Source of the DNA: a virus
Taxonomy: Duplodnaviria > Heunggongvirae > Uroviricota > Caudoviricetes
DNA: 57,427 nt
Reading direction: 5' to 3' (one strand)
IMG/VR virus record: IMGVR_UViG_2778261297_000008
This document shows positions 50,129-53,613 of this stretch, piece by piece; within the stretch, counting starts at the first letter, position 1; the number at the start of each line of letters is the position of its first letter. Under the pieces are notes generated by a model, which saw only the letters and a list, made by a program, of their open reading frames with translations, ran no database searches and was not told where the DNA came from. A program made the translations under genes and the position numbers.

Positions 50129-51115
50129 ATGGCTACTGCAGAGCAGATCAAAGCTTTATTGAAAAGCCACGTTGATCGTGATGATCAGCGTTTCTTTTCT
50201 ATTGCTTTGCAGGTGGCAGCTAAGGAAGCAAGGCAAGGTCATCATAAGCTTGCTAATGATATAAAAAACTTAGTTGATAAAAATCAGAAAACAACGAGTT
50301 CTGTAGGTTTAGTTGAAAAACGACTTACACCATTTGTTAAGCAGCCTGATGGTGATCTTAAGGGGTTACTTGAGCAAACGAACAAGCCAGTACATCTTCA
50401 AGATCTGGTGATTTCTGGAAGCGTTAGGGAAAGATTGAATCAGGTTCTGCTTGAACAAAAACAGAAAGATAAACTTTCTGAGTTTGGGCTTATTCCAAGA
50501 AGAAAAATTCTTTTCACTGGTCCTCCCGGTACTGGTAAGACAATGTCCGCATCAGTCATTGCTACAGAGTTAAAGCTACCACTTTATACAGTCGTCTTAG
50601 ATAATCTAATCACTCGCTATATGGGTGAAACTGCAGCTAAGCTGCGTTTAATTTTTGACCACATACGGCAAACAAGAGCTGTATATTTTTTTGACGAGTT
50701 CGATGCTATAGGAACTCAGCGTGGCGCTCAGAATGACGTTGGAGAAATTCGTAGGGTCTTAAATTCTTTTTTAATGTTTGTAGAGCAGGATGATTCTGAG
50801 AGCATAGTTTTAGCTGCAACCAATCATCCAGAGCTTTTAGATCGCGCCTTATATAGACGATTTGACGATATTATACCGTTCACAAGGCCTGAGGATAATC
50901 TAATCAGGAATCTTATTGAACAGAGACTCGCTGTCTTTGACCTCGGTAATTTATTTTGGAGTGAGATCATTGATAGTGCTTCAGGTCTAAGTGCAGCGGA
51001 GATCACGCGAGCAAGTGAAGATGCTGCCAAAGAATCAGTGCTTTATAATGCAAACAATATTACAACCGATTTGTTAGTAAAGGCTATAAAGCGTAGGCAA
51101 GAAAGTAGACAATAA
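50129..51115 (+). CDS. ietA: AAA+ ATPase (IetA-like)
   Basis: Walker A GPPGTGKT, Walker B YFFDEFDAI, second region of homology ATNHPELLDRALYRRF; immediately followed by an S8 peptidase gene; IetAS name recalled from memory. Confidence 0.8.
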   Translation: MATAEQIKALLKSHVDRDDQRFFSIALQVAAKEARQGHHKLANDIKNLVDKNQKTTSSVGLVEKRLTPFVKQPDGDLKGLLEQTNKPVHLQDLVISGSVRERLNQVLLEQKQKDKLSEFGLIPRRKILFTGPPGTGKTMSASVIATELKLPLYTVVLDNLITRYMGETAAKLRLIFDHIRQTRAVYFFDEFDAIGTQRGAQNDVGEIRRVLNSFLMFVEQDDSESIVLAATNHPELLDRALYRRFDDIIPFTRPEDNLIRNLIEQRLAVFDLGNLFWSEIIDSASGLSAAEITRASEDAAKESVLYNANNITTDLLVKAIKRRQESRQ

Positions 51116-51123
51116 GGGATGAA

Positions 51124-53613
51124 ATGACTACCAACAAGAGGCATATTTTATTAAACGGCTATGTTTCCCCCGAAAACTATCGCTCTAGGAGCAATGGTCG
51201 TAGTCCCCAAGTCCCAGCTCGTGATCGAGCGGTACATGGTATATCATTACTAAATCAGTATAGCCGTATATTGAATCATTATGATGAAAGACCGAGGCTT
51301 CCCCCTGTTACTGATGAAAAAGGGATTTATGTTAGGCTAATCAGTTTTGAACAATGCGATCTTCCTATAGATAAAATCGATAATACTTATTTCAAGCTTT
51401 GTTCTTTAGTTAAATCAAATAATCGTGAAACTGCGATTATATACATTAATGAAAATGACAGAACTAAATTCACTAAAAAAATAAATGACTATTTGAATCC
51501 ATCGAAGGATGGTATCGAGTTCCCTAGAAATCATTTGTTAATTGATAGCATACAAAATATCGAGTTAGCAGATATAACTTCTTTCTGGACAGATAAAAAA
51601 GATCTTATTCCGGATGATCACGGTGTTGAAAAGTGGTTTGAGCTTTGGCTTAAGGGTAATAAGGAGGATGTGCTAAATATTGCTCGGCGTTTATGCGAAA
51701 GAATTAATGGAAGGCTCGGGAATACTTCTATTAATTTTTTCGATACTACTGTTGTTCTTATCCGTACGAGTCTATCGAGATTAAAAGTTTGTCCTGAATT
51801 AATATCTAATTTAAAAGAGATAAGATCAGCGAGGGATGATATATCAGTTATAGTTAATTCCTTACCTACAGAACAGCATCAGTGGGCAGAAAATGTTGCT
51901 GCAAGAATTACGCGTAACAATGAAGCTGATGTTTCTGTTTGTATATTAGATACAGGTGTTAACTACAATAATCCACTATTATCTAGATTTACTAACTCAT
52001 CACTGGCAGCTGCTTGGGACATATCTTGGCCACTTTTCGATGATTATAATCAAAGGCCTTATAATGACCACGGTTCCAGACAAGCAGGACTATGTGTTTA
52101 TGGAGATTTCCTGTCTGTTTTATTGAACGATCAGGACATTTCGATTCCGTACAATATCGAATCAGGAAGGATACTACCTCCAAGAGCTACTAATGATCCT
52201 AATCTTTATGGAGCTATTACTACAGGAACGTCAAGTCGTCTGGAGCTGGAAAACCCGAACTGGCGCAGAGTTTATTCGCTTGCTGTGACAGCAGAGCCTA
52301 ATACTCTTGGAGGCCAACCGTCCTCATGGTCTGCAGAGATTGACAAGTTTAGTTTTGGTTTAGAGGATGATATCCGCAGATTATTTATAATTTCTGCGGG
52401 TAACTCTCAACCTACAAATTTAGAATTAGATTATTGGGATTCAGTGACTCTTGCTGAAATTGAAGATCCTGCTCAATCTTGGAATGCATTAACTGTAGGG
52501 GCGTATACTGATAAAACAACCCATACAGACCGCGAATATGATGGTTGGTCTCCTTTCGCTATGTCAGAAGATATTGCACCGTCATCTCGGTCATCGGTAT
52601 CCTGGGGATGGAAAAAGCATGCCCCATATAAGCCAGATTTAGTAGAGGAAGGCGGAAACAAACTTATATCACCTAGCCGTGATGAAATCACAAATACAAT
52701 TGAATTATCTTTGCTCACAACCTCTGGCAGGGCAACAAATCAATTGTTTGAAGTTAATTCAGATACTAGCGCAGCCTGTGCTCTAGTATCAAAACATGCT
52801 GCTATGCTAATGGCTCAGTACCCAGAATATTGGCCTGAAACTATTAGGGGATTACTTGTTCATACAGCAAGATGGACTAGTCGTATGCACGAACGATATA
52901 GAACAGAACGTGCACAGGGGACACCAAAATCGGCTAAAGAAAGCTTATTAAGGATGGTTGGTTATGGAGTACCTAATTTAAATCGAGCAATGCATAGTGC
53001 GGAAAATGCACTTACATTAATATCTCAGTCGGAAATCACCCCATTTAAAAGAGATGGTTCTACTGATCCTACATTGAATGAAATGCATCTGTTTTCACTC
53101 CCTTGGCCCGTAGAAGCTCTTCGCTTACTACCACCAGAAACAAATGTTATTTTAAGAATCACATTGTCGTATTTTATTGAACCTAATCCAAGTCAAAAAG
53201 GATTCAGACGACAATATTCGTATCAATCTCATGGATTGAGATTTGCAGTTATTAGACCTAATCAGACCCTTGAAAATTTCCGTGCTTCGATAAACCGTAA
53301 TGCGAATAATGAAGAATACAATGGACCTGAAGGAGATGCGTCAGGATGGTTTCTGGGGCCTCAACTCAGAGTTAGAGGTTCATTACACTCAGATGCTTGG
53401 AAAGGCAGTGCTGCAGATTTAACAGAGATGAATACTATCGCTGTCTATCCTGTTGGTGGATGGTGGAAATATCGTACTGCGCAGGATCGCTATATTAACA
53501 ATGTTAAATATAGTTTATTGGTTAGCATAGATGTACCAGATGAGAACATTGATATTTACAGTGAGATTCAAAACATTATTCAAATTGATAATCAAATAGA
53601 TATTGAACATTAA
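51124..53613 (+). CDS. ietS: Subtilisin-like S8 serine peptidase (IetS-like), 829 aa
   Basis: Candidate catalytic triad contexts ILDTGV (Asp), NDHGS (His), DTSAACA (Ser); co-oriented 8 bp after the AAA+ gene. Confidence 0.8.
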   Translation: MTTNKRHILLNGYVSPENYRSRSNGRSPQVPARDRAVHGISLLNQYSRILNHYDERPRLPPVTDEKGIYVRLISFEQCDLPIDKIDNTYFKLCSLVKSNNRETAIIYINENDRTKFTKKINDYLNPSKDGIEFPRNHLLIDSIQNIELADITSFWTDKKDLIPDDHGVEKWFELWLKGNKEDVLNIARRLCERINGRLGNTSINFFDTTVVLIRTSLSRLKVCPELISNLKEIRSARDDISVIVNSLPTEQHQWAENVAARITRNNEADVSVCILDTGVNYNNPLLSRFTNSSLAAAWDISWPLFDDYNQRPYNDHGSRQAGLCVYGDFLSVLLNDQDISIPYNIESGRILPPRATNDPNLYGAITTGTSSRLELENPNWRRVYSLAVTAEPNTLGGQPSSWSAEIDKFSFGLEDDIRRLFIISAGNSQPTNLELDYWDSVTLAEIEDPAQSWNALTVGAYTDKTTHTDREYDGWSPFAMSEDIAPSSRSSVSWGWKKHAPYKPDLVEEGGNKLISPSRDEITNTIELSLLTTSGRATNQLFEVNSDTSAACALVSKHAAMLMAQYPEYWPETIRGLLVHTARWTSRMHERYRTERAQGTPKSAKESLLRMVGYGVPNLNRAMHSAENALTLISQSEITPFKRDGSTDPTLNEMHLFSLPWPVEALRLLPPETNVILRITLSYFIEPNPSQKGFRRQYSYQSHGLRFAVIRPNQTLENFRASINRNANNEEYNGPEGDASGWFLGPQLRVRGSLHSDAWKGSAADLTEMNTIAVYPVGGWWKYRTAQDRYINNVKYSLLVSIDVPDENIDIYSEIQNIIQIDNQIDIEH

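Follow-up and report, generated by a model that had tools for sequence, protein, structure and literature searches.

A predicted IetAS protease-ATPase module of the pTiC58-like clade beside a prophage at the Escherichia coli thrW hotspot

IetAS was first described as a plasmid-stability toxin-antitoxin in which a protease (IetS) is the toxin and an ATPase (IetA) the antitoxin (PMC13069673). These roles hold for both pTiC58 and SGI1 (PMC5006074). Plasmid stability and incompatibility were the context in which the pTiC58 pair was characterised (Yamamoto et al. 2009, as cited in PMC5006074 and PMC13069673), and its functional homologue on SGI1, SgiAT (S026/S025), shows 50% and 36% identity to pTiC58 IetA and IetS, respectively (PMC5006074); PADLOC-based surveys label SgiAT as ietAS (PMC9958689). 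In Mycoplasma, deleting the ATPase antitoxin gene alone is lethal (PMC8562856). Other members have been studied as anti-phage systems. In Bacillus cereus, ietAS works through abortive infection, with SPbeta yosG as its trigger (10.1101/2022.08.27.505566), ECOR52 ietAS gives weak protection with synergy alongside Zorya II (10.1101/2022.08.21.504612), and in the SNF2-linked E. coli variant ietHAS both protease activity and the helicase are needed for defence against T7 (PMC13069673). How IetAS acts against phages nevertheless "remains unknown" (PMC13069673, 2026), and our literature search found no mechanistic or structural study of it. Here we describe an IetAS pair located near the end of IMG/VR virus record IMGVR_UViG_2778261297_000008, a 57,427-nucleotide stretch of DNA that we refer to as the window.

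We consider it highly probable that the pair makes up a horizontally acquired and intact IetAS module of the pTiC58-like clade, in which IetA would restrain IetS, and that this module lies on the margin of a decayed conjugative-element remnant at the thrW hotspot. The argument is carried by family membership, by operon architecture, by the intact catalytic machinery of both proteins and by a strict order of ietA before ietS that extends across phyla.

An initial annotation, made from the letters alone, had described a 328-residue AAA+ ATPase followed 8 bp later by an 829-residue subtilisin-like protein and had proposed that the two form the anti-phage system IetAS. The open reading frame (ORF) list and Pfam agree with this layout, AAA (PF00004) matching residues 127-252 of IetA (1.8e-29) and Peptidase_S8 (PF00082) residues 269-615 of IetS (4.3e-54). 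The family name was likewise borne out by PADLOC profiles spanning nearly the full length of each protein. PDLC02196 matches residues 2-325 of the 328 in IetA at 5.5e-77, with three further IetA models at 1e-46 to 1e-72, while PDLC02198 matches residues 94-822 of the 829 in IetS at 2.9e-34 and PDLC04233 matches its C-terminal half at 1.1e-27. Comparison with the pTiC58 type was made via the 214,233-bp Agrobacterium Ti plasmid pTi1D1460, which was assumed from its size and protein accession series to carry the pTiC58-type pair. Both proteins aligned with these references end to end. The two IetA proteins share the same 328-residue length and 50% identity over 324 of those residues (E = 2e-108); the IetS proteins, of 829 and 836 residues, are 35% identical and collinear over residues 7-828 (E = 6e-155). 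The Ti-plasmid founders match these PADLOC profiles as well, in an identical order and with scores slightly below those of the window pair. By sequence, the pair can thus be placed in the IetAS family and in its pTiC58-like clade. The original anti-phage label therefore stands as to family and is narrowed to a clade that has been shown to act as a toxin-antitoxin and in stabilising its element; by analogy, this allele may also act against phages. The pair was also considered as a housekeeping AAA+ protease; this was ruled out by its sporadic distribution, low G+C content (GC) and mobile-element context.

IetA possesses a Walker A motif (GPPGTGKT, residues 131-138), pore loop 1 (R-Y-M-G, 163-166), a Walker B motif (VYFFDE, 185-190), sensor 1 (N232) and Arg fingers (R243/R244). 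Residues K137/T138, D189/E190, N232 and R243/R244 are kept in 77 of 77 IetA sequences, and 76 of these have F or Y as the pore-loop aromatic, followed by M or L and an invariant G. The best relatives by sequence in the PDB are the D2 domains of Cdc48/p97 (2.7e-43). Given this conservation of the ATPase motifs and pore loop together with the Cdc48/p97 relatives, IetA looks like a working substrate-threading unfoldase.

IetS can be divided into a disordered, conserved tail (residues 1-33), ferredoxin- or propeptide-like N-terminal units (approximately 34-262), the S8 domain (approximately 269-615) and a family-specific C-terminal domain (approximately 618-829). The subtilisin-like Asp, His and Ser contexts noticed at the outset map to D276 (DTG), H316 (HGS) and S549 (DTSAA), accompanied by N427 (SAGN), and all four residues are invariant in 73 of 73 IetS homologues. 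Neither protein contains a hydrophobic segment (the IetS maximum KD19 is 0.96), and both are therefore predicted to be cytoplasmic. Residues H7, R35 and H38 are conserved in the region of the disordered tail. The N-terminal region was modelled confidently by AlphaFold (predicted local distance difference test, pLDDT, about 71-85; 70.7 when modelled alone) as the disordered tail, a long helix and two alpha/beta units, the second of which (residues 170-235) has a clean beta-alpha-beta-beta-alpha-beta topology and lies directly ahead of the catalytic domain. The best fold matches of this region are subtilase propeptides, and those of the full-length model are the prodomain-bearing PCSK9 and cucumisin. 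The C-terminal 210 or so residues form the most conserved part of the protein and are common to all IetS types examined. For this domain Pfam returned nothing even at E ≤ 10, and a profile search against the PDB gave only chance-level ribosomal matches (E = 0.09-0.65). IetS itself has no sequence match in the PDB at E ≤ 1e-3 and hence no solved relative. Separately, PF27160.1 is a precomputed Pfam hit in about half of the IetS homologues that are 53-58% identical.

Homologues of IetS number more than 2,257, the closest being 80-83% identical proteins in Yersinia, Klebsiella and Salmonella. Among species-representative genomes there are at least 594 carriers, spread over Proteobacteria, Acidobacteriota, Myxococcota, Cyanobacteria, Bacteroidota, Planctomycetota, Actinobacteria and other groups. 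Gene pairing was counted in 80 loci, two of which had no upstream DNA and were left out; in all 78 assessable loci a homologue of IetA is encoded immediately upstream of IetS on the same strand. IetA is the more conserved partner (44-74% identity versus 34-58% for IetS). When the flanking ORFs were clustered, no family occurred in more than 6 of the 78 loci as a recurrent third gene. IetAS is a self-contained two-gene module with no obligatory third component. The most frequent neighbours, judged by eye from their sequences, resemble restriction-modification proteins. Klebsiella and Salmonella carry the same cassette of 328 residues, 8 bp and 829 residues in unrelated integrative islands, beside genes for Fic, DUF4062, reverse transcriptase, AlpA and integrases, and the flanks differ wholly between E. 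coli, Klebsiella and Salmonella. In E. coli, 34 of 5,426 complete genomes carry the pair, always on the chromosome and at least 99% identical; exactly the window allele is shared by 22 intact genomes of unrelated origin.

The strict pairing might suggest an AAA+ protease of two components, comparable to PAN-proteasome or ClpX-ClpP, whereby IetA would unfold phage or plasmid substrates and feed them to IetS, and IetS on its own would be toxic because it is ungated. The tight translational coupling of the genes is in keeping with this model, as are the conserved pore loop of IetA and its closeness to threading unfoldases (Cdc48/p97, PAN, FtsH), and the large conserved C-terminal domain of IetS could serve as a docking surface. 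However, S8 subtilases act as monomers whose active sites are open, and they form no self-compartmentalised chamber, and we identified no docking motif. Moreover, the genetics of the homologues show IetA neutralising IetS and not being required for its toxicity (PMC5006074, PMC8562856, PMC13069673). We accordingly regard a two-component protease as improbable.

Several features of the DNA bear on expression (Table 1). The 8-bp spacer and the position of the ietS Shine-Dalgarno-like motif over the ietA stop codon indicate that ietA and ietS form an operon with coupled translation. The same spacing is found in the Klebsiella and Salmonella copies, and a three-way alignment of the E. coli, Klebsiella and Salmonella DNA showed that the leader, with its TATAGT hexamer, and both ribosome-binding sites are kept out to relatives of 81-83% identity. 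Similarity between the E. coli and the Klebsiella and Salmonella sequences ends approximately 85 bp ahead of the ietA start (upstream of about position 50045), a boundary that we take as the left edge of the cassette. In a promoter/terminator scan, promoter-like sites were fewer than in shuffled sequence; terminator-like sites within ietA were set aside as probably due to chance. An Rfam scan of positions 47700-55200 found no RNA family. The GC is 34-42% across 50-54 kb as against 50-61% in the prophage structural region, a contrast which argues that the pair is foreign DNA.

From its homologues, IetS would be a toxic intracellular serine protease that IetA neutralises. Neutralisation appears to need functional IetA, because a construct with mutated ietA could not be made (PMC13069673). 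We propose that IetA may assemble into a hexamer of the classical AAA+ kind, its pore loop functional, and may spend ATP keeping IetS inactive. The most likely route would be for IetA to engage the conserved disordered tail of IetS and remodel the propeptide-like N-terminal modules, such that the protease never matures. Should IetA be titrated, inhibited, starved of ATP or not resupplied, in the course of phage infection or following loss of the element, IetS would mature and cleave host targets, leading to cell arrest or death. Since loss of IetA would be the trigger, one module could serve both element addiction and abortive infection, and the window allele may, by analogy, protect its host from phage. 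A more specific proposal is offered tentatively, and we think it rather unlikely to hold in full. Here IetS would be an intracellular zymogen-like subtilase that keeps its conserved disordered tail along with two propeptide-like modules, IetA would act as an "unfoldase antitoxin" that threads this tail using ATP, and phage or plasmid factors that titrate or stall IetA would trigger death. If true, this would represent a principle of neutralisation not described for other toxin-antitoxin or defence systems, and it could conveniently be tested with the E. coli allele, for which natural ietS-null strains exist.

Damaged copies are present in 12 of the 34 E. coli genomes (35%). In one group ietS is broken while ietA is intact: by IS903B in 730V1, by IS1A in 14EC047 and 14EC017, by ISSen4 plus IS3 in LR-33, by ISKpn26 plus a deletion in TUM2820, by an IS1-mediated 3' truncation in ET881, and by 1-bp deletions in 2013C-4991 and HCP5S3_I4 (equivalent to positions 51301 and 53188, respectively). 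B27 has lost ietS together with the last codons of ietA, and three genomes retain only 419 nt of ietA. Thus, seven independent lesions, five involving an insertion sequence (IS) and two being 1-bp deletions, hit ietS and leave ietA intact, whilst a copy in which ietA is broken and ietS intact does not occur among the 34. This asymmetry is in the direction expected of a toxin/antitoxin pair and weakly supports that reading, although it does not reach significance.

The pattern of decay also bears on whether the pair is purely an addiction or stability device of a conjugative element, with no anti-phage role, whose stable protease toxin kills element-free cells and which is now left over in a decayed island. 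The toxin gene is the first to go in the decaying E. coli copies, the neighbouring genes are conjugation genes (NikA-like TraJ, TrbJ, TrbL), and the closest characterised relatives, pTiC58 IetAS and SGI1 SgiAT, are stability modules (PMC5006074). Additionally, about 490 plasmid records carry the family, some 70% of these being conjugative, and it was found in no complete phage genome. On the other hand, post-segregational killing was not seen with the SGI1 pair under its own promoter (PMC5006074), and more distant family members protect against phages (PMC13069673; 10.1101/2022.08.27.505566). The defence-type cargo around the Klebsiella and Salmonella cassettes and the restriction-modification-like appearance of the commonest neighbours also point away from an exclusive stability role, and addiction and defence are not mutually exclusive. 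An addiction-only device is therefore a possible explanation, but one that we consider unlikely.

A number of observations count against an intact IetAS module in which IetA restrains IetS. The extent of damage among the E. coli copies shows that selection to keep the module is not strong. Because ietS makes up 72% of the coding target, finding none of seven lesions in ietA corresponds to p of approximately 0.1, and the two 1-bp deletions may be assembly errors. No promoter was detected upstream of ietA in a simple sigma-70 consensus scan. The full-length AlphaFold model of IetS has a mean pLDDT of 63, its S8 core (residues 425-549) is poorly modelled, and the model of its C-terminal domain is of too low a quality for fold comparison. 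The mode by which IetA restrains IetS is one that we infer entirely, and the toxicity of IetS alone in homologues implies that the N-terminal modules are not inhibitory by themselves. We found no published experiment on the window allele or on phage defence by the pTiC58-like clade. Finally, the window pair falls below the cut-offs of the NCBIfam IteA and IteS equivalog models (NF042959, 221.6 versus 510 bits; NF042956, 38.8 versus 900 bits); the pTiC58-type pair and the pair of E. coli E24377A do likewise, from which we conclude that these models define a narrower subfamily.

Some of the same observations would fit a window copy that is a silent, non-functional relic, intact by chance: the island is degraded and has no integrase, a third of the E. 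coli copies are damaged and the consensus scan gave no promoter. Against this, both ORFs are full length, none of the catalytic residues has been lost, the same allele recurs in intact genomes of unrelated origin, and the leader with its TATAGT hexamer and both ribosome-binding sites is conserved in relatives of 81-83% identity. Furthermore, if ietS were silent, lesions would have no reason to spare ietA. A relic is, in our assessment, very improbable, and an intact module remains the preferred reading of the locus.

The window matches the chromosome of E. coli EC09 at 100% over positions 49300-54300, and its last 28 kb differ from EC09 at three positions only (41844, 42192 and 42849). The change at 42849 creates a stop that splits an EC09-annotated 410-residue prophage ORF (42502-43734, minus strand) into pieces of 69 and 304 residues. 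A lambdoid prophage of approximately 48 kb is bounded by attL and attR, the two 47-bp copies of the thrW 3' end. The initial annotation had placed the pair immediately after attR, in a separate island downstream of the prophage, with defence genes on both sides of this site. Each part of this description was upheld, and the second was refined. The attR copy is a perfect repeat that lies 463 bp before the ietA start, and an AbiTii-domain gene and a CapH/CapP-like pair occupy the right end of the prophage. In strain ECONIH4, the ietAS pair follows thrW directly without an intervening prophage, which implies that the prophage inserted in front of an older island. This island contains ietAS, an orphan gene annotated as HigA, NikA-like TraJ, TrbJ, a TrbL fragment and IS1, and is a decayed remnant of a P-type conjugative element without an integrase, at the thrW hotspot. 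The trbL gene is intact in 730V1 and cut by IS1 in EC09 and ECONIH4.

Table 1. Features in and around the ietAS pair (positions are those of the window)
Feature	Position	Strand	Remarks
tRNA-Thr(CGT), thrW	1369-1444		
CapH-like helix-turn-helix protein and CapP-like ImmA/IrrE M78 peptidase, regulator pair	44416-45305; 46219-46695	+; +	3.6e-10 and 6e-11, respectively; prophage cargo region
AbiTii-domain protein, 306 residues	46797-47717	-	Pfam 5.1e-44, PADLOC 3.3e-36; abortive-infection-type gene at the prophage right end, about 1.9 kb left of attR
IS110-family ISEsa2 transposase	47890-49167	-	between the AbiTii gene and attR; EC09 annotation
attR, 47-bp copy of the thrW 3' end	49619-49665	+	perfect repeat of 1399-1445; boundary marker, outside IetAS
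Cassette leader, conserved	50057-50128	+	three-way DNA alignment of E. coli, Klebsiella and Salmonella
TATAGT, -10-like hexamer in the leader	50084-50089	+	putative promoter element
GAGGGG, Shine-Dalgarno-like motif ahead of the ietA start codon	50121-50126	+	sequence
ietA	50129-51115	+	ATG start, 328 residues; classical-clade AAA+ ATPase, presumed antitoxin/restraint
AAGGGA, Shine-Dalgarno-like motif of ietS	51114-51119	+	overlaps the ietA stop codon; sequence
ietA-ietS spacer, 8 bp	51116-51123	+	ORF coordinates
ietS	51124-53613	+	ATG start, 829 residues; cytoplasmic S8 subtilase, presumed toxin/effector
ORF of 104 residues	53878-54192	-	HigA-family antitoxin by PGAP annotation
Conjugative-element remnant	55666-57427	+	NikA-like TraJ (4.7e-24), TrbJ, small ORF, TrbL start

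The HigA-annotated ORF gave no Pfam or PADLOC match at 1e-3 and has no adjoining partner ORF of at least 50 residues; as it is missing from the Klebsiella and Salmonella cassettes, it was placed outside IetAS. Next to it lie some 900 bp of ORF-free DNA with 31% GC (54193-55101). In the prophage cargo region, the CapH/CapP-like regulator pair is followed by a DUF6650 protein. Comparison of strains 730V1, B27, HCP5S3_I4, 2013C-4991 and TUM2820 revealed that the cargo of the slot between thrW and ietA varies by strain, comprising a lambdoid prophage that carries Avs2, a type II restriction-modification pair, a SMEK-domain gene or a baseplate-type prophage. The slot is a variable defence hotspot stacked ahead of a constant ietAS. 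Hits at 90-97% to an un-annotated stretch of about 310 bp (49357-49665) come from more than 5,000 E. coli genomes as well as about 400 "plasmid" records. One such record carries pinE and pao genes and looks chromosomal. The stretch appears to be the prophage attachment arm plus the thrW 3' fragment and, being so explained, was dropped as an oddity.

Taken as a whole, the locus is a routine member of a very large known family, detectable by profile, and a rare variant in E. coli. What is new here is the set of propeptide-like fold matches at the N-terminus of IetS and the bias of natural lesions towards ietS. Its value lies in offering, for the pTiC58-like clade, a model that is native to E. 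coli and provided with natural toxin-null alleles, for the study of IetAS mechanism, for which the disordered tail of IetS, the propeptide-like N-terminal modules and the conserved C-terminal domain suggest themselves as handles. It also gives an example of the thrW hotspot, in which a defence-carrying prophage is stacked against an older island with a toxin-antitoxin-type defence module.

Within E. coli, a described system for comparison is the common SNF2-linked ietHAS (PMC13069673), exemplified by E24377A. Here the same families occur in the same order with a 9-bp gap, and the C-terminal domain of IetS is shared. Identity to the window pair, however, is only 35% for IetA and 23% for IetS, and the E24377A IetS is shorter at 795 residues. 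The E24377A genes form a five-gene block encoding an SNF2 helicase, IetA, IetS, a DNA methyltransferase and a DEAD/DEAH helicase, an arrangement in agreement with the ietHAS organisation and with reports that ietAS co-localises with type III restriction-modification. In contrast, neither the SNF2 helicase nor the methyltransferase/helicase pair is present in the window; directly upstream of ietA, where an SNF2-family helicase gene would lie, are attR and the end of the prophage. The primers used to clone ECOR52 ietAS have no match in the window or in the E24377A locus.

More distant relatives share the domain pair. The ietAS of Gao et al. 2020 and B. cereus m1293 (NF042959, NF042956) has the family name in common with the window pair, whereas its model lengths of 367 and 747 compare with 328 and 829 residues here, and the window proteins are not equivalogs. 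The Mycoplasma A132/T133 pair, compared by description, is likewise a chromosomal operon of ATPase then protease, and its toxin causes filamentation in E. coli (PMC8562856), but the proteins are 353 and 757 residues long and the lineage is distant. As a mechanistic analogy only, PCSK9, Tk-SP, cucumisin and the I9 inhibitors resemble IetS in that an S8 domain is preceded by one or more propeptide-like modules of beta-alpha-beta-beta-alpha-beta topology, and it is they that supply the best fold matches of the IetS N-terminal region. PCSK9, Tk-SP and cucumisin are secreted and mature by autoprocessing, whereas IetS is predicted to be cytoplasmic and apparently has two such units and a disordered tail, with presumed control by a separate AAA+ ATPase.

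The two systems closest to the window pair are those known from mobile elements. SgiAT of SGI1, again compared by description, is an AAA-ATPase antitoxin with a subtilisin-like toxin on an integrated mobilisable element in Enterobacteriaceae, and differs in residing on an intact mobilisable island as opposed to the decayed remnant that carries the window pair. The pTiC58 IetAS agrees with the window pair in gene order, near-zero spacing, IetA length, collinearity of IetS across three regions and best PADLOC profiles; it differs in its location on an alphaproteobacterial plasmid instead of an E. coli chromosomal island, and in a sequence divergence of 50-65%.

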